Positions 1 through 6,926 of a DNA stretch of 6,926 nucleotides are shown in pieces (within the stretch, counting starts at the first letter, position 1; each line of letters begins with the position of its first letter). Position numbers and translations under genes: made by a program. Below the pieces are notes generated by a model. It made no database searches. It was given only the letters and a program-made list of their open reading frames with translations, and had not been told where the DNA came from. The stretch comes from a virus. Taxonomy: Duplodnaviria; Heunggongvirae; Uroviricota; Caudoviricetes. The DNA is taken from positions 1-6,926 of IMG/VR virus record IMGVR_UViG_2648501390_000002. One strand, 5' to 3'.

Positions 1-129
1 GAGCAAGTAATAGAAATAAAGAAATCAAAGGGAGTTAATCAAAGAGAGCTTGCTAAAAAATACTGTGTCAGTCAGACGGTGATTCACAATATCCAGTCTG
101 GTAAATCGTGGAGGCATGTTAATGGCTGA
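1..129 (+). CDS. 3' end of an upstream gene (5' end outside window); the last 42 aa contain a helix-turn-helix-like segment
   Basis: Frame 1 is open from base 1 to TGA at 127-129 and translates [42 protein letters not shown]. The segment [21 protein letters not shown] has the spacing of a classic HTH (Gly turn, hydrophobic recognition helix). Its stop overlaps the start of the next gene (ATG 122), implying translational coupling. Only 42 aa are visible, so the fold assignment is tentative. Confidence 0.45.
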
Positions 130-1075
130 TTCGAATCTCAATGAGCCAGTAATCATTCAGGCTACGCGGCTCGATACATCAATCCTTCCACGCAATATCT
201 TCTCGCAGTCGTATCTGCTTTACGTTATCGCACAGGGTACTGATGTTGGTAACGTGGCTAACAAAGCCAACGAGGCCGGACAGGGCGCTTATGATGCACA
301 GGTCAGGAACGATGAGCAGGATGTCACCCTTGCAGACCATGAATCCAGAATTGAAGCAGCTGAAGCAACTCTCATCAATCATGAGCATAGAATTGCAGCA
401 GCGGAAAGCACTCTTGCAGATCATGAAACAAGGATTACGGCTGCTGAAACAGAGCTGGCTGATCACGAGACGAGAATTGCTGCCAATGAATCTGAGTTAG
501 CAAACCATGATGCGCGCATAACTCAGAATACAACCGATATCGACGCACTTGATACCAGGCTCACAGCGGCAGAGGGAAGTATTTCGACGCTACAAAGCAC
601 AGTTGGTGATCACTCAACAAGAATATCTGCGCTTGAGTATGCCACCACGCGCAAGAAATCAGAGGTTGTTTACTCAGGGGTATCTGTAACCATCCCGACA
701 GCGCCGACTAACCTTGTTAGCCTGCTGAAAACGCTCACGCCGTCATCCGGAACGTTGGCACCATTCTTCGACACCGTTAACAACAAGATGGTTGTGTTCA
801 ACGAGAACAAAACCCTGTTCTTCAAGCTGTCGATTGTCGGGACGTGGCCCAGTGGAACCGCCAACAGGTCAATGCAGCTAACCTTTTCCGGCTCTGTTCC
901 TGACACACTGGTAAGCAGTCGCAACTCGGCGACAACGACCGATAACATCCTGTTAGCTACGTTCTTCAGCGTGGATAAAGACGGCTTTCTTGCCACAAAT
1001 GGCAGCACGTTAACCATTCAGTCGAATGGTGCGTCGTTTACTGCCACAACCATCAAGATAATCGCGGAGCAGTAA
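122..1075 (+). CDS. Tail needle / cell-envelope-penetrating fiber (P22 gp26-like) with an extra C-terminal knob-like domain
   Basis: ORF-track ORF 116-1075. I prefer ATG 122 because GGAGG at 110-114 sits 7 nt upstream of it but only 1 nt upstream of ATG 116. The N-terminus [43 protein letters not shown] closely matches my recollection of the P22 gp26 N-terminus (from memory, not searched). The centre is five 14-aa coiled-coil repeats (ADHExRIxAAExxL). The protein is 317 aa versus about 233 aa for P22 gp26, and the extra about 150 C-terminal residues are beta-rich (S/T/N/G), as in knob-bearing needles of Sf6-type phages. Confidence 0.85.
332..541 (+). repeat. Five imperfect 42-bp tandem repeats inside the needle gene, encoding 14-residue coiled-coil units
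   Basis: Units at 332-373, 374-415, 416-457, 458-499 and a degenerate one at 500-541 encode [14 protein letters not shown] / [14 protein letters not shown] / [14 protein letters not shown] / [14 protein letters not shown] / [14 protein letters not shown]. Read directly from the sequence. Confidence 0.8.
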
Positions 1076-1530
1076 TGATTCAGTTCAAACCAACGCGAAA
1101 CATCGACCTGATAGAAGCCGTGGGAAATCACCCCGACATTATCACCGGGAGCAACAACGGTGATGGATACGACTACAAGCCTGAATGCCGTTACTTCGAG
1201 GTGAACGTGCACGGTCAGTTTGGCGGCATTGTTTACTATCAGGAGATTCAGCCGCTGACATTCGATTGCCACGCCATGTACCTGCCAGAGGTTCGTGGAT
1301 TCAGCAAGGAAATCGGGCTGGCGTTCTGGCGATACATTCTGACTAACACCACTGTTCAGTGTGTCACATCGTTCGCTGCACGCAAATTCCGCCACGGGCA
1401 GATGTACTGCGCAATGATTGGCCTTAAGCGTGTCGGAACCATCAAGAAATACTTTAAAGGCGTGGATGACGTGACTTTTTACAGCGCCACACGCGAAGAA
1501 CTAATCGACTTCCTGAATCACGGGAGATAG
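1075..1530 (+). CDS. Gene 14-like protein (position and size match P22 gene 14, associated with ejection-protein function/assembly)
   Basis: 151-aa ORF. Its ATG at 1075-1077 shares a base with the TAA stop of the needle gene (TAATG), and GGAG lies 5 nt upstream. The assignment rests on synteny (needle-14-7-20-16 order) and size; I do not recognise the sequence itself. Confidence 0.6.
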   Translation: MIQFKPTRNIDLIEAVGNHPDIITGSNNGDGYDYKPECRYFEVNVHGQFGGIVYYQEIQPLTFDCHAMYLPEVRGFSKEIGLAFWRYILTNTTVQCVTSFAARKFRHGQMYCAMIGLKRVGTIKKYFKGVDDVTFYSATREELIDFLNHGR

Positions 1531-1532
1531 CC

Positions 1533-2228
1533 ATGTTATATGCATTTAAGCTGGGCAGAAAACTGCGCGGCGAGGAACCTTATTGCCCTGAAAAAGGCGG
1601 GAAAGGTGGCTCCGATAAAAGTGCAAAGTATGCCGCAGAAGCTCAGAAGTATGCCGCAGACCTGCAAAATCAGCAGTTCAACACCATCATGAATAACCTG
1701 AAGCCGTTTACTCCTCTGGCTGAGAAGTATGTCGGTAGCCTCGAGAACTTATCGTCTCTGGAGGGGCAAGGTCAGGCACTTAACCAGTATTACAACTCTC
1801 AGCAGTATAAAGACCTTGCAGGTCAGGCTCGCTATCAGAGTCTGGCGGCAGCGGAAGCAACAGGTGGATTGGGTTCCACCTCAACCAGTAATCAGTTAGC
1901 AACAATCGCACCAACGCTTGGTCAGCAATGGCTATCTGGACAAATGAACAACTACCAGAATCTGGCAAATATTGGTCTTGGCGCGCTTCAGGGACAGGCA
2001 AACGCCGGGCAGACATATGCCAACAACATGAGCCAGATTTCACAGCAAAGCGCAGCACTGGCGGCGGCAAACGCTAACAGACCTTCCGGCCTTCAATCTG
2101 CAATAGGCGGGGCTGCCTCTGGAGCAATTGCTGGAGCACAGCTTGGCAGCATTGTTCCCGGTATTGGTACTGGTATTGGTGCCGCTGTTGGCGGCGGTCT
2201 TGGTCTTCTTGGTTCACTACTTTATTAA
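1533..2228 (+). CDS. Ejection (E) protein, P22 gp7-like
   Basis: 231 aa (P22 gp7 is about 229 aa, from memory). It starts 2 nt after the gene 14 stop. It has a basic N-terminal segment (MLYAFKLGRKLRGEEP...), a Gln/Ala/Asn-rich middle, and a Gly/Ala/Ile-rich hydrophobic C-terminus (GGAASGAIAGAQLGSIVPGIGTGIGAAVGGGLGLLGSLLY) suited to membrane insertion. Confidence 0.7.
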   Translation: MLYAFKLGRKLRGEEPYCPEKGGKGGSDKSAKYAAEAQKYAADLQNQQFNTIMNNLKPFTPLAEKYVGSLENLSSLEGQGQALNQYYNSQQYKDLAGQARYQSLAAAEATGGLGSTSTSNQLATIAPTLGQQWLSGQMNNYQNLANIGLGALQGQANAGQTYANNMSQISQQSAALAAANANRPSGLQSAIGGAASGAIAGAQLGSIVPGIGTGIGAAVGGGLGLLGSLLY

Positions 2229-2238
2229 GGGGTAATCA

Positions 2239-3582
2239 ATGGCTACGTGGCAACAGGGTATTAATTCTGGTGGTTTTCTGGCTGGCATCGGTGCGCAAAA
2301 TGAGAATGCGCCAAAGGCAAGCGACATTAACGCAACGCTTGGTCTGATCCGCGAAAACAATGAACTGGCTCGCTCAGGTGCAAATAACGTTGGTCTGACC
2401 GCGTTACGTGGTCTGGCTGGAGTTGCTGATATTTATAAGCAGCAGCAACAGCAGGAACGTAAAGCGGCATTCCAGAAAGGTTATGCAGATGCTTATGCGT
2501 CCGGCGACAGGGAGCAGATGCGTAATCTTATTACAGCATTCCCTGAAGAGTTTGAGGAAGTCCGTAAAGGCATGGGGTATGTCGATGATGCCCAGCGGGA
2601 TGATTTTGGCAATCTGGCGCTCAAGGCTCAGGTAGCTTCGTCGCTTGGTCCGGGCGCATTTGGCAGGTTCATGATGGATAACGAAAAGGAGATGCGTCGT
2701 TTAGGTATCCCTCCAGAAACTATTGCGGAAATGCAGGTTAATGACCCGCAGGGCTTCCAGCACTTCACAGGTAATCTGGCACTATTTTCTCTCGGTCATG
2801 AGAAGTATTTCGATATCAAAGATCGAATGGAGGGGCGTCGACTTGAGCAAGGGCGATTGGATGAAAGCATCCGTCAGGCTGACATGGAGAATGCGAGAGG
2901 ATGGGCAAATATCCAAAATGCTCAACTAGACAGGGCTCAGCGGGCACAAATGCACTCAGATGAGATGGGATTGAAGCTAATGGAGCTGGGGCAAAAAGGT
3001 AAGCCGTCAGCAGACTTAATTAAGGGATTAAATTCTGACATTACCAATTTTGGCAAAAATTATAACTCTGTCAGAGCGGCGGCAAACTCTCTGCAAGCCC
3101 TTAGCAAGGTAAATACTGGCGCTGCCCAACTTGGGATTATCTTTAATTACATGAAGTCTCTCGACCCTCAGTCAGTTGTTCGCGAAGGTGAACAGGTTCA
3201 GGTCATGCGCTCTGATGGCATATGGGGGCAGATAAAAGGATATGTAGACCAGCTTAATGCAGGGAATGGCTTGTCACAGGAAGCGAGGGATAACATTGTC
3301 AACGCAGCAAAAATTAACGCCAACGCTATGGGGCAGCAGTTTAACCAGCAGGTAGACGAATATCTGGATACGTATGGAGATACTATTCCTCAGGGGCTGA
3401 AAAAAAGTTTAGGGAGAAGGAAGGCCAAGCTATTTGACGATGTCCCAGCGCAGCCTACACCACAAGGTGGTAATGGGCAGACAAAAGCTGCGCCAAGTGG
3501 GATATCAGAAGGCGCGACGGCAACGAACCCTAAAACTGGTCAGAAACTCATTTATAGGAACGGACAATGGCAACCGATGTAG
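2239..3582 (+). CDS. Ejection (E) protein, P22 gp20-like
   Basis: 447 aa (P22 gp20 is about 471 aa, from memory). AAGGGG lies upstream of ATG 2239. It is third in the conserved 7-20-16 order, Gln-rich and predicted largely helical, and overlaps the next gene by 16 nt. Confidence 0.7.
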   Translation: MATWQQGINSGGFLAGIGAQNENAPKASDINATLGLIRENNELARSGANNVGLTALRGLAGVADIYKQQQQQERKAAFQKGYADAYASGDREQMRNLITAFPEEFEEVRKGMGYVDDAQRDDFGNLALKAQVASSLGPGAFGRFMMDNEKEMRRLGIPPETIAEMQVNDPQGFQHFTGNLALFSLGHEKYFDIKDRMEGRRLEQGRLDESIRQADMENARGWANIQNAQLDRAQRAQMHSDEMGLKLMELGQKGKPSADLIKGLNSDITNFGKNYNSVRAAANSLQALSKVNTGAAQLGIIFNYMKSLDPQSVVREGEQVQVMRSDGIWGQIKGYVDQLNAGNGLSQEARDNIVNAAKINANAMGQQFNQQVDEYLDTYGDTIPQGLKKSLGRRKAKLFDDVPAQPTPQGGNGQTKAAPSGISEGATATNPKTGQKLIYRNGQWQPM

Positions 3583-5690
3583 GTTTACCCGAAGGCTTTG
3601 TTCTCGATAATCAGCCTGATAACTCACAGCTTCCTGATGGCTTTGTGCTTGATTCCCAACCAGAACAGCAGCAATCTCCTTTGGTTTCACCAGAGGAAAA
3701 TTCCAGACAGGAAAATGTTGTTAATAATGCTAACGGTTTCGACCGTTTTATGTATGGCGTTCTCAGTGGATTGATGGATGTTGGTAAAGGTGTTGGCCTG
3801 TTTCAGGACATGACACCAGAAGAGCAAGCCGCAATTCAGTCTCTACAGCAGAAGTTAGCGGCAAAACCATCAACCGCACAAGATGTTGGTGAGTTCGTTG
3901 GACAAGCAGCACCATTTGTTAGTGGTGGTGGGATTATTTCTCAGGTTCCGAAAGGGGCGGCAAGGCTGGCTGCCGCCGCAGGGCTTGGTGCTGGAGAAGG
4001 GGCTATTGTAGCCAATGGAACAAATAGCGATGTTGCTTCCGGCGCTGCTATTGGCGCTGTGGCTGGCCCTGTAGCCGAGATTGTTGGTCCAGCGCTTGGG
4101 AAGATTGCAGGAAAAATTAAAAATAGTGCCGGAGATATTTATCGCTCATCCGTAGGGATGGGTAGTAAATCATCTAAAGCAACGTTAAAGAAAGCTGCTG
4201 GCGCAATGGATAATAAATTTATTGGTGGGCAACGAGCTATTCAAGATTTCGCCGATGAAGTTAATCCTGATTTTAACGCGATAAATGCTATTCGTGAGCT
4301 AGAACTGGAAAATTATGCCACTCCAGGCATGATCTCTAATAATCCTGCTGTCAGGGCTCTTGATAATGCAGTGGCAAGTCTCCCTGGAACAGAGATTAGT
4401 GAGGCGCATAAGCGTTTTATTACTGAATTAGGAAGAAAAGCTGATGAAATGATAACTTCATTTGGGGGAAACCTTGATAAGCAACTGGTTTCTGACAGGC
4501 TTGCAGATAATTTTGATAAAACCATTTCATCATTACAAAATCAGTCAGATAACATCTACAACAAAATTGCCGAAAAGGTACCTGTAAGAGACCGGATTGA
4601 GGCAACTAATACATTGAATTTTTTAGAGGATTTTGCTGATGACATAGGTGGAATTGATGAATTATCTCCAATAATGAAGCGGACATTGAACCGACTTGAT
4701 CCAAACACCTTGCCAACGTATGGGCGTTTAGATCTCGCTAGAAAGCAGGTTGGACAAGCTATTGGCAAAGGCTCTGGCCCATTCAAGGATGAAGAAACAG
4801 GTGTTCTTAAAAAGTTATATGCAGCCATAACAGATGACCAACAGGCTGTCGCAGAAAAATATGGCGCAGGGGAATTATGGACGCTTGGTAAGGAGTTGGT
4901 AAAAAAACGAAAATCCATTGAAGATGATGCTGTAACCGTCTTGGGTAGAAAACTTCAGCAATCAGCAATTCCAAAAGTTGAAAGTGCCGTTGTTAATATG
5001 GCAAAAGGAAACGGTGGTGACTTTAGGCAATTAATGAAGTCAATTCCAAAGGATATGCGGCAGGAAGTTGCGCTCACCTCAATGAATAAAGCATTTACCA
5101 GCTATGCCAAATCACCTGGTCAGCAATTAGGAGTTGATGGATTTGTAAAATGGTATAACGGAATGTCACGCAATGGGGCCAATATGAAGGCTCTCCGTGA
5201 TGCTATTGGCACAGATGCATCAAAGCGCCTTGATACGATTTATCAAGCAGCTAAGGCTATGAATAGACTCAATACTGGTAAGCAGTATGCTAGTAGCCTT
5301 GTGGATCAGCAAGTTAATAACTTTCTGAAAGAAAAGGGTAGTCTCGCAAAAATTTATGGAATAGCCTCAAAAGCTGCTGCGGCGGAAGGTATTACAAGCT
5401 TATCTGGTCTTCCTGGTGTAGGTGCAACAGGGGTGATAACGTCAGCATTGATGTCAGGGAAAACAAGCAGGATAAAGGCTGCTGATGCCCTACTGTCTTC
5501 TCCTGAGTTTAAATCAATGCTATTTCGCCTGCAAAACGCACCAGTAGACAGAGCAGAAGTGAGACGCGTAATAGAAAGGAAACTGATGCAATCTGGGGCA
5601 TTTAAGAGATGGGAGAAAACCTTATCAACAGATGAAGCAAAAACCATTGCCCGCACGGGGATTATTACATGGCTCGCTAGTGACAGTTAG
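3567..5690 (+). CDS. Ejection (E) protein, P22 gp16-like, with an N-terminal tandem peptide repeat and a compositionally distinct distal part
   Basis: 707 aa (P22 gp16 is about 609 aa, from memory). AGGAA lies 7 nt upstream of ATG 3567, and the start overlaps the gp20-like stop. It is the last gene of the co-directional block and has a Gly/Ala-rich segment (aa about 110-180). Confidence 0.7.
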   Translation: MATDVGLPEGFVLDNQPDNSQLPDGFVLDSQPEQQQSPLVSPEENSRQENVVNNANGFDRFMYGVLSGLMDVGKGVGLFQDMTPEEQAAIQSLQQKLAAKPSTAQDVGEFVGQAAPFVSGGGIISQVPKGAARLAAAAGLGAGEGAIVANGTNSDVASGAAIGAVAGPVAEIVGPALGKIAGKIKNSAGDIYRSSVGMGSKSSKATLKKAAGAMDNKFIGGQRAIQDFADEVNPDFNAINAIRELELENYATPGMISNNPAVRALDNAVASLPGTEISEAHKRFITELGRKADEMITSFGGNLDKQLVSDRLADNFDKTISSLQNQSDNIYNKIAEKVPVRDRIEATNTLNFLEDFADDIGGIDELSPIMKRTLNRLDPNTLPTYGRLDLARKQVGQAIGKGSGPFKDEETGVLKKLYAAITDDQQAVAEKYGAGELWTLGKELVKKRKSIEDDAVTVLGRKLQQSAIPKVESAVVNMAKGNGGDFRQLMKSIPKDMRQEVALTSMNKAFTSYAKSPGQQLGVDGFVKWYNGMSRNGANMKALRDAIGTDASKRLDTIYQAAKAMNRLNTGKQYASSLVDQQVNNFLKEKGSLAKIYGIASKAAAAEGITSLSGLPGVGATGVITSALMSGKTSRIKAADALLSSPEFKSMLFRLQNAPVDRAEVRRVIERKLMQSGAFKRWEKTLSTDEAKTIARTGIITWLASDS
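3585..3674 (+). repeat. Two 45-bp tandem repeats encoding LPEGFVLDNQPDNSQ / LPDGFVLDSQPEQQQ at the N-terminus of the gp16-like protein
   Basis: Direct read: 3585-3629 and 3630-3674 encode near-identical 15-aa units with the core LP[ED]GFVLD[NS]QP. Confidence 0.75.
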
Positions 5691-5914
5691 TCAACTTTGG
5701 TTATTTTGCCTTCTTTTTCTTGATGAACTTTGCATCCATCATCTTTTGATAGCCAAACTAAAAACTTTAAAACCTTAAACACAAGTAAGGCTACTGCAAT
5801 GAAAGCACCAATCGCAATTATTGCTAGCGAAATTATTTGCATTGGTGCTTTTAATGCAGGGAAAATAGTGTAAATGATCGCGAAAACAGTAATTATGAGG
5901 AACCATCGCTTCAC
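5687..5914 (-). CDS. Small inner-membrane protein (75 aa, two predicted TM helices, charged C-terminal tail); candidate superinfection-exclusion or membrane-acting accessory protein
   Basis: The ORF track gives 5687-5989 (100 aa from ATG 5989), but that ATG has no Shine-Dalgarno sequence. An in-frame GTG at 5914-5912 is preceded by a perfect AAGGAGG (complement of 5920-5926) with a 5-nt spacer. The product is VKRWFLIITVFAIIYTIFPALKAPMQIISLAIIAIGAFIAVALLVFKVLKFLVWLSKDDGCKVHQEKEGKITKVD: two hydrophobic stretches of about 18-23 aa, then a Lys/Asp/Glu-rich tail. Its stop (complement of 5687-5689) overlaps the gene 16 stop (5688-5690). Confidence 0.55.
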   Translation of the reverse strand: MKRWFLIITVFAIIYTIFPALKAPMQIISLAIIAIGAFIAVALLVFKVLKFLVWLSKDDGCKVHQEKEGKITKVD

Positions 5915-5978
5915 ACCAACCTCCTTAGTTTTGTGCAGGATACCAGATGATAATGTGTAGTTGGAGTAGCGCGGTTGT

Positions 5979-6070
5979 AATGCAAGCATTTTGTTTTGGT
6001 TTTATGCTTGCTTGTATGTGTGTACAGTGCATATAATGCAAGCATACATCACAATAAAGGTGCTTGCATT
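5979..6070. promoter_or_regulatory. Divergent control region with four copies of a near-palindromic operator-like motif (consensus AATGCWWGCATT)
   Basis: O1 at 5979-5990 is AATGCAAGCATT (perfect 5-bp inverted arms around AA). O2 at 6003-6014 is TATGCTTGCTTG (core ATGCTTGC). O3 at 6035-6046 is AATGCAAGCATA. O4 at 6059-6070 is GGTGCTTGCATT and abuts ATG 6071. Centre-to-centre spacings are about 23, 33 and 24 bp, with alternating AA/TT centres. Confidence 0.5.
6008..6037 (+). promoter_or_regulatory. Putative sigma70-type promoter for the rightward gene (-35 TTGCTT, 18-bp spacer, -10 TATAAT)
   Basis: TTGCTT at 6008-6013 and a consensus TATAAT at 6032-6037. O2 overlaps the -35 and O3 overlaps the -10/+1 region. 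AAAGG at 6055-6059 is a plausible RBS for ATG 6071. Not experimentally supported. Confidence 0.4.
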
Positions 6071-6926
6071 ATGACTGAAAAGAAAAGTGGCGAAGGGAAA
6101 GCTAAGGGCGGTATCGCTCGCGCAAAGTCGCTGACTAAAGAGCAGCGTTCTGAAATAGCAAAGAAAGCAGCGGCTGCAAGATGGAAGGATAAACCATTAA
6201 TTGCTACGCATAAGGGATCGTTCCAGCATGAATTCGGGATTGATGTTGAGTGCTATGTGTTAAATGATGATAACAAAACTGCCGTTATTAGCCAGAGAGG
6301 CATGGGAGAAGCGATTGGTCTTGGCGAAGGTGGCAGCAGGTTGCCAAAGTTTATTCAGGGGAAAACTATTTCTCAGTATATCGGGCATGAATTAAGGGCA
6401 AAACTTGAAAATCCTCTTATTTTTCAATACAAACAGGCGGGCACGAACACTCCAGCTAATCCTGTAATACATGGCTACGATGTAACAATATTAATTGATT
6501 TATGTCGAGCAATCTCTAATGCTAAAGCTGAAGGTAAGTTGCTTTCCAGTCAGGAAGGGATTGCTAAGCAAGCCAGAATCATTATTGATGCATCAGCCAA
6601 GGCGGGCATTCAGGGGCTTGTTTATGCTTTGGCAGGGTATGACAGAACAAAAGAAGAGGTAATTCAAGCATATAAGCGATATGTTGCTGAAGAGGCTCGT
6701 GAGTATGAAAGAGAGTTCACCCCTGAACTTTATGAGCATTGGTATCGTCTGTATGGTATAGACAAACCAGTTAGAGGGCGACCATGGGCGTTTAAATATC
6801 TTACGATAGATCACATTTATTACCCATTAGCCAGAAGTGAAGGAAAGGTATTTAATTTAGCAAAAACGTCAAAAGAAGAAAAAGGCAGCAAAAACGATAA
6901 AATACACCAGTTTTTATCAGAGGTTG
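6071..6926 (+). CDS. 5' part of a gene for a phage regulatory-type protein (P63C-domain / antirepressor-like family; 3' end outside window)
   Basis: Frame 2 is open from ATG 6071 to the window end (285 codons). It is missing from the ORF track, presumably because it has no stop in the window. The N-terminus MTEKKSGEGKAKGGIARAKSLTKEQRSEIAKKAAAARWKDK carries the basic motif GGxARAxxLTxEQRxEIAxKAAxARW, which I associate from memory with P63C-domain proteins that accompany Bro-N/KilA-N/Ant-type antirepressor domains. It is preceded by the operator/promoter region. Confidence 0.7.
   Translation, partial: MTEKKSGEGKAKGGIARAKSLTKEQRSEIAKKAAAARWKDKPLIATHKGSFQHEFGIDVECYVLNDDNKTAVISQRGMGEAIGLGEGGSRLPKFIQGKTISQYIGHELRAKLENPLIFQYKQAGTNTPANPVIHGYDVTILIDLCRAISNAKAEGKLLSSQEGIAKQARIIIDASAKAGIQGLVYALAGYDRTKEEVIQAYKRYVAEEAREYEREFTPELYEHWYRLYGIDKPVRGRPWAFKYLTIDHIYYPLARSEGKVFNLAKTSKEEKGSKNDKIHQFLSEV

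Follow-up and report, generated by a model that had tools for sequence, protein, structure and literature searches.

The window analysed here is a stretch of 6,926 nucleotides, positions 1 to 6,926 of the IMG/VR virus record IMGVR_UViG_2648501390_000002 (Caudoviricetes), and it is the late-region end of a P22-like prophage. At its right end lies a gene of the P63C family, preceded by a predicted promoter embedded in an array of four short dyad-symmetric sites. The gene starts with an ATG at 6071-6073 and its frame is open to 6925 (285 codons), so that it continues past the end of the window. In E. coli MS 21-1 (locus L001), a copy with 99.3% nucleotide identity to the window gene has a full length of 330 residues; judged from this length, the last ~45 codons of the window gene should fall outside the window. 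An earlier note on this DNA, made from the sequence alone, had also described the gene as truncated by the window, and this is correct. The gene and its parts are the following, in window coordinates:

6071-6926, plus strand: P63C-family gene, the 5' 285 of ~330 codons, assigned from the open frame, the identity to L001 and PHROG 2384.
6104-6184, plus strand: basic two-helix motif KGGIARAKSLTKEQRSEIAKKAAAARW, residues 12-38, proposed as operator-recognition module from the sequence, the AlphaFold helices and a comparison of alleles.
6197-6535, plus strand: alpha/beta domain, residues 43-155, weakly like Bro-N and winged-helix-like DNA-binding domains.
6674-6922, plus strand: P63C domain (PF10546), residues 202-284, 33.8 bits, cut by the window end.

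The gene truly belongs to the functionally uncharacterised P63C family and carries this annotation already. Residues 202-284 of the window protein score 33.8 bits against the Pfam model, above its gathering cut-off of 26.1, while the full-length copy in L001 scores 35.9 bits and the allele of a second E. coli prophage (L002) 52.7 bits. All 87 aligned relatives match the model as well (40/40 and 47/47 in two alignments). The family assignment, which the earlier note gave as tentative, is thus borne out. At full length, residues 6-328 align to positions 4-331 of the 338 in the profile of PHROG 2384 (E 4.5e-103), whose function is listed as unknown, and an identical protein is labelled 'P63C domain-containing protein' in RefSeq. 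The likeness to the PF10546 proteins, which are named after p63 of the Myxococcus phage Mx8, is seen in the score of the hidden Markov model, in the PHROG profile and in the RefSeq name. This membership gives no mechanism, as the family is without assigned function.

The P63C domain is said to have been defined by Iyer, Koonin and Aravind in 2002. The family is widespread and poorly characterised, as had been proposed: a family search matched 2552 clusters at 50% identity, NCBIfam contains no match to the protein, and the defence models of PADLOC-DB v2 match neither E. coli allele at E values up to 0.1. Among phages a homologue is encoded in only 35 of 50,697 records, and the labels are all 'hypothetical' or 'P63C'. 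Literature searches on P63C, Mx8 p63, Bro-N with P63C, and IS1 passenger genes yielded passing mentions and no functional study. Compared with the PF10546 family at large, the subfamily of the window gene adds the basic N-terminal motif and a fixed four-site promoter, neither of which was found described in the searchable literature. One distant member of the family, found in the deep alignment described below, carries a RelB antitoxin domain (Pfam E 1.4e-10), which hints that some P63C proteins are joined to DNA-binding modules of the toxin-antitoxin type.

The four sites and the promoter elements between them lie within 100 bp of the start codon:

5980-5989: site 1, ATGCAAGCAT, centred at about -60 from the predicted transcription start, with conserved position and orientation.
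6004-6013: site 2, ATGCTTGCTT, containing the predicted -35 element TTGCTT (6008-6013).
6032-6037, plus strand: predicted -10 element TATAAT, 18 bp after the -35 element, its last two bases opening site 3.
6036-6045: site 3, ATGCAAGCAT, covering part of the -10 element and the predicted transcription start (~6044).
6060-6069: site 4, GTGCTTGCAT, between the Shine-Dalgarno sequence (AAGG, 6057-6060) and the ATG at 6071.

The sequence ATGCAAGCAT is thus present as exact copies at 5980 and 6036, and ATGCTTGCTT at 6004 and GTGCTTGCAT at 6060 are copies with one mismatch. Counted in the window alone, the motif is only marginally above chance (6 matches, 2.1 expected). Comparison between loci is far more informative. 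We scanned one genome per species and obtained 80 loci with full-length homologues, 51-68% identical, from Alpha-, Beta-, Gamma- and Deltaproteobacteria, Acidobacteriota, Firmicutes, Chloroflexi, Verrucomicrobia, Abditibacteriota and Myxococcota. In 37 of the 80 loci, the gene is preceded by four exact 8-mers TGC(AA/TT)GCA in the order AA, TT, AA, TT with a spacing of ~23, 31 and 24 nucleotides, and 21 further loci contain two or three exact 8-mers. The 160 nucleotides before the gene have 12.7 copies of the 8-mer per kb, compared with 0.069 per kb in the other 1.03 Mb of the loci, a difference of ~185-fold. All four sites are identical among three E. coli copies. In Burkholderia cenocepacia and Azotobacter chroococcum, whose genes are 62-65% identical and stand in loci with unrelated flanks and base composition, all four sites recur upstream in this order, the last of them abutting the ATG. 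In dozens of loci, spread over at least six phyla, four ATGCWWGCAT sites are therefore conserved together with the gene. A link between the gene and the motif AATGCWWGCATT, suggested in the earlier note, is in this way strongly backed by the comparative data, as the sites are co-inherited with the gene across loci.

Alignment of 43 loci on site 3 gives the consensus ATGCTTGCAT, a 17-bp spacer of free sequence and then TAnnAT-GCAAGCA. The site 2 consensus, ATGCTTGCAT, supplies a -35 element TTGCAT, and the distance from site 2 to site 3 is 31 nucleotides in 29 of the 43 loci and 30-33 nucleotides overall. The array thus contains a predicted sigma-70 promoter, with its -35 element in site 2 and its -10 element running into site 3. 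A generic promoter scan of the window failed to call this promoter because the -35 element matches the consensus at just three of six positions; the promoter is instead assigned from its conservation across loci. In three of the loci (L085, L089 and L090), an intrinsic terminator lies directly upstream of the array. The region 5972-6077 can also form a long nested hairpin (-50.4 kcal/mol, z = -6.3), in which sites 1 and 4 are one pair and sites 2 and 3 the other. A search of 5600-6926 against Rfam returned only sub-threshold matches to microRNA precursors, which we rejected, as they are caused by the long hairpin.

The rest of the window places the gene in its phage context:

116-1075, plus strand: tail needle (gp26-like).
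1075-1530: gp14-like gene.
1533-2228, 2239-3582 and 3567-5690: ejection proteins.
5687-5989, minus strand: open reading frame (ORF), from the program-made list, of a membrane protein with two spans in the position of sieA, outside the gene and its array.

The tail needle contains tandem heptad-like repeats fitting a trimeric coiled coil and is ordinary-looking, although the number of repeats may differ from that in P22. In the small minus-strand ORF, PHROG 7294 (unknown function) covers just residues 26-100, and for this reason the true start is probably a GTG near 5914, which is preceded by an AAGGAGG Shine-Dalgarno sequence. Homology to P22 is limited, in the target region, to 34 bp (5912-5945) that match the 5' end of sieA exactly; the small protein itself is unrelated in size to SieA.

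The order of genes downstream was read from the two closest E. coli P22-like prophages. In L001, gene 16 is followed by the small gene (minus), the P63C gene (plus), a ClpP-like gene (minus), an mnt-like gene of the Arc family (minus), arc (plus), ant (plus) and the tailspike gene. Similarly, L002 contains gene 16, the small gene (minus), the P63C gene (plus), several small genes, an mnt-like gene (minus), arc (plus), a small gene, ant (plus), which carries a P22AR C-domain, and the tailspike gene. P22 itself has the order 16, sieA (minus), ORF59 (minus), mnt (minus), arc, ant and 9, and the P63C gene is absent. The gene is thus an insertion in the interval from the sieA position to mnt and precedes a complete immI region, and both this location and the P63C membership are held with high confidence.

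These relatives decide several expectations of the earlier note. The gene had been placed in the position of arc and ant, but as a complete mnt-arc-ant set lies downstream in both relatives, it is no stand-in for them. Nor does it open a longer operon, as had been considered, since in L001 a hairpin followed by a T-run, AAAAACCCACCGTCAGGTGGGTTTTTT, lies directly 3' of the stop codon and is followed by two genes of the opposite strand. The expected tailspike gene is indeed found further downstream in both. What the region shares with P22 immI is its place between the ejection genes and the tailspike gene, its character as a small regulatory region and dyad operators that overlap a promoter. However, the P63C protein has no homology to the ribbon-helix-helix proteins Arc and Mnt or to Ant, and P22 has no P63C gene. 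As a separate observation, the ClpP-like gene of L001 (10205-10741, minus strand; 178 residues, Pfam CLP_protease E 2e-11) is a truncated-looking protease gene directly upstream of the mnt-like gene on the same strand, an unusual partner for immI.

Outside these prophages, the gene is often carried by transposons. The array stands between the P63C gene and a divergent IS1-like transposase of ~290 residues in ~36 of 84 loci. This protein scores 25.5 bits with the Pfam IS1 DDE transposase model (cut-off 24.1) and 62 bits with the NCBIfam IS1 model, below the cut-off of 100 bits. Terminal inverted repeats GGTAGTG[GT]nTCAGTTTGAA[AT] (GGTAGTGGKTCAGTTTGAAW) enclose the transposase, the array, the P63C gene and a small ORF. 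The elements are 2.3-4.7 kb long, the minimal ones of ~2.3 kb retain the P63C gene, and perfect 8-bp target-site duplications flank all 22 elements of which both ends are visible. Examples of the transposon and of the small ORF are:

L008:6973-9275, L026:6990-9276 and 20 further loci: IS1-like transposons with a single-ORF DDE transposase, from several phyla.
L017:8965-9231, L020:8971-9246, L013:8975-9241 and others, minus strand: ~78-residue ORF with a C-terminal repeat of the basic motif.

With IS1 elements that carry passenger genes, these transposons share the DDE transposase, the GGTAGTG termini and the 8-bp target duplications, and they differ in a transposase below the NCBIfam IS1 cut-off and in two or three extra genes. 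Neither the window, which covers the 5' flank of the gene, nor L001 contains a transposase or, with up to five mismatches allowed, a match to the inverted repeat; L002 has no transposase and a single weak match with five mismatches. The phage copies consist of the gene and the array alone. Recent spread by transposons explains, at least partly, the high identity of the family across phyla.

The basic N-terminal motif KGGIARAKSLTKEQRSEIAKKAAAARW covers residues 12-38 with a net charge of +8, and residues 1-41 contain 13 K/R and 5 D/E (counted by eye), so the strongly basic character that the earlier note had pointed to is confirmed. Four observations suggest, although not decisively, that the protein may read the array with its own N-terminus. 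Two E. coli alleles are 100% identical in residues 1-39 and in the array, while the remaining 290 residues are ~48% identical; at the nucleotide level, the homology between the window and L002 breaks at 6186, the last codon of the motif. In ten acidobacterial loci (L024, L027, L032, L034, L036, L039, L048, L052, L057 and L070), a different dyad, TACTTGCYCGRGCAAGTA / TATACTTGCYCGRGCAAGTATA, is found around the promoter: two TATACTTGCYCGRGCAAGTATA copies, ~150 nucleotides upstream, flank a CTTGAC -35-like element and replace ATGCWWGCAT. The proteins of this clade have an extended N-terminus (…AAKxLSxLGAxKGGEARA…), and 11 of the 13 clade-specific positions, i.e., those near-fixed here and rare in the canonical clade, are at or before residue 41. 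Further dyad variants occur in L054 and L066 (TGCTTGACA / TGTCAAGCA) and in L084 (ATGCGTGC), and three loci (L067, L068 and L074) encode a protein without the motif and have zero or one site.

The motif is also found outside the P63C protein. In at least 25 loci, the same 26 residues form the C-terminus of a separate 78-residue ORF that converges on the P63C gene, there in the form GGKARAxxLTxExRxEIAKKAAxxRW, which makes the motif an independent module. The 78-residue protein belongs to a very abundant uncharacterised family of small proteins: a search gave more than 7,800 homologues, all unnamed and without a Pfam domain, and no functional lead.

An AlphaFold model built from a deeper alignment (47 sequences, down to ~30% identity) has a mean predicted local distance difference test score (pLDDT) of 86.8. 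The N-terminal part is predicted as two helices, residues 15-20 and 23-38, followed by the alpha/beta domain (43-155) and an all-helical region (159-319) that contains P63C. A first model of lower confidence (pLDDT 69) was the query of a Foldseek search against BFVD, in which p63 of phage Mx8 (Q94MQ6) is the second-best match (E 8.3e-4, probability 0.97), with a TM-score of merely 0.19-0.24. After it follows a long tail of Bro-N proteins with E values of 0.01-0.5. The order of strands and helices in residues 43-155 is similar to that of viral Bro-N/KilA-N proteins, and the weak fold matches to them are recurrent; as a lead only, the middle domain may be Bro-N-like or winged-helix-like. The Pfam models of Bro-N, KilA-N, Ant and P22_AR match neither the query nor the 87 relatives at E values up to 1-5. 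Similarly, no Pfam match to the ribbon-helix-helix/Arc family was obtained, and the N-terminal motif is predicted as two helices without a leading strand. A PDB sequence search with the family profile found no solved structural homologue; its matches to designed Kelch-repeat proteins are spurious, as they add up stretches of 20 residues that match 'GLVYALAGYD'.

Hydrophobic residues, glycines, cysteines and one tyrosine make up the columns that are invariant, or nearly so, in the deep alignment. There is no invariant polar residue, no conserved charged residue or histidine, and no catalytic or nucleoside triphosphatase (NTPase) signature. The lack of a conserved charged residue or histidine argues for binding rather than catalysis, and the C-terminal part of the protein would then be non-enzymatic.

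We suggest, with moderate confidence, that the gene and the 100 bp upstream of it are a portable, self-contained accessory cassette, or 'moron', that represses itself. In this model, the cassette would have been inserted between the DNA-ejection genes and the true immI of a P22-like prophage, bringing its own putative sigma-70 promoter embedded in four 10-bp dyads (ATGCAAGCAT / ATGCTTGCAT) in the order AA, TT, AA, TT. The P63C protein would bind the four dyads as an oligomer, most likely with the basic N-terminus as its reading head. Binding at the -35 element, at the -10 element and start, and at the ribosome-binding region would repress the protein's own promoter, and the conserved C-terminal body could provide an effector function through the binding of a partner and not through catalysis. 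The self-regulation of the gene, taken by itself, we consider somewhat more probable than not.

Phage morons are autonomous insertions of promoter, gene and terminator that have been described for lambdoid phages. The P63C cassette resembles them in its own predicted promoter, its single gene, the flanking terminators and its several positions in different prophages, and it is present or absent between otherwise conserved phage genes. It differs from them in the conserved array of four operators and in being transposon cargo in other phyla.

Several points weigh against this proposal. The co-inheritance of gene and sites would fit another reader too, for example the 78-residue neighbour that has the same motif in the transposon copies. 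The evidence from variant operators comes from one clade and thus from one evolutionary event. The strict order AA, TT, AA, TT is neither explained by nor required for a simple operator of a symmetric dimer, and, given the long nested hairpin (z = -6.3), the region might, though improbably, act as single-stranded nucleic acid. Finally, the stop codon lies outside the window, and the genes further downstream are therefore read from relatives only.

Three alternative roles of the effector were weighed: exclusion or defence, regulation of a transposon, and antirepression. In the first, the gene would be expressed in the lysogen and block superinfecting phages or mobile DNA, e.g., by binding incoming DNA or a phage protein, which is compatible with self-repression. 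The gene occupies classic slots for such a function. In the window, it lies next to the gene in the sieA position. In L004, L089 and L090, the cassette is found directly downstream of a cI-type S24 repressor on the same strand, which is the slot of rexAB in lambda. In L003, L085 and L087, it stands at a prophage end. In prophages generally, an intrinsic terminator often precedes the cassette. Its own predicted promoter and the flanking terminators agree with this role, as do a weak Pfam match to Imm_superinfect near the cassettes of L085 and L087 and ParE/Phd beside that of L004. These positions of an accessory gene fit exclusion, defence or another function expressed in the lysogen, although they do not prove it, position alone being weak evidence. 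The absence of any PADLOC match and of a catalytic or NTPase signature speaks against it, and so does a minimal transposon of 2.3 kb that has the gene as core cargo in non-phage surroundings. We therefore regard exclusion or defence as a possible but rather unlikely role.

The transposon copies suggest a second role, in which the protein would regulate, as an accessory factor, the divergent IS1-like transposase, using the intergenic sites that the two genes share, and the copy in phages would be a decaying remnant. The array lies between transposase and gene in 36 of 84 loci, the inverted repeats enclose all the parts, and the duplications at all 22 complete elements, together with the retention of the gene in minimal elements, are in agreement with this. 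However, the enterobacterial prophage copies, which are without transposase and inverted repeats, keep intact ORFs, the sites and two diverged alleles, and they stand at several independent phage positions. It can be argued from these intact copies that the gene has a function independent of the transposase, and we consider regulation of the transposase unlikely to be its main role.

As an antirepressor, which the earlier note had proposed in calling the gene antirepressor-like, the protein would bind and inactivate the repressor of its own phage or of a competing prophage, like Ant of P22. The layout is of the Bro/Ant type, with an N-terminal part like a DNA-binding domain and a C-terminal part made of helices, the gene adjoins immI, and the weak viral fold matches include Bro-N, 'repressor domain' and antirepressor proteins. 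However, a bona fide ant with P22AR domains lies downstream in both relatives, and none of the 87 family members has a Pfam match to Ant, P22_AR or Bro-N. Elsewhere, the gene lies just after cI on the same strand, where an antagonist of the resident repressor would be self-defeating, and it is common in transposons, which have no phage repressor, in genomes without an adjacent phage. The antirepressor label is thus not upheld, and such a role appears distinctly improbable.

It is very improbable that the 'operators' work as hairpins of RNA or single-stranded DNA, in a leader or at a recombination site, instead of being bound by protein as double-stranded DNA. The nested hairpin and the alternating AA and TT centres, which keep the sites mutually complementary, would favour it. 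However, with the conserved -35 and -10 elements, the transcript of the gene would not include sites 1 and 2 or most of site 3, which argues against an RNA leader. The site sequence is also conserved and not covarying within the main clade, and the Rfam matches are sub-threshold only.

Beyond the self-repressing cassette, a wider scenario can be speculated on, which we hold to be possible, if doubtful. The P63C protein, the four-dyad array and the 78-residue protein could be the regulatory or accessory core of an undescribed IS1-related transposon of many phyla, from which temperate phages would repeatedly have captured the gene with its operator as a cassette expressed in the lysogen. The shared 26-residue motif, KGGxARAxxLxxExRxEIAxKAAxxRW, would then be a new, very common and minimal sequence-specific module that reads ATGCWWGCAT.

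As an annotation the finding is ordinary, and its interest is moderate. It corrects the genome map, in which the gene belongs upstream of immI as an add-on, and the label of an antirepressor is unwarranted. A P63C-type accessory gene has been mentioned in passing, for a Paracoccus phage, as linking phages of unrelated hosts in gene-sharing networks (PMC6536676). The transposon link offers an explanation of such connections through a single accessory gene. P63C is a common phage domain of unknown function, and the subfamily described here is unusually conserved, with 50-68% identity from Enterobacteria to Acidobacteriota, Firmicutes and Verrucomicrobia. Its fixed and easily synthesised array of sites gives a directly testable handle on this widespread uncharacterised domain.

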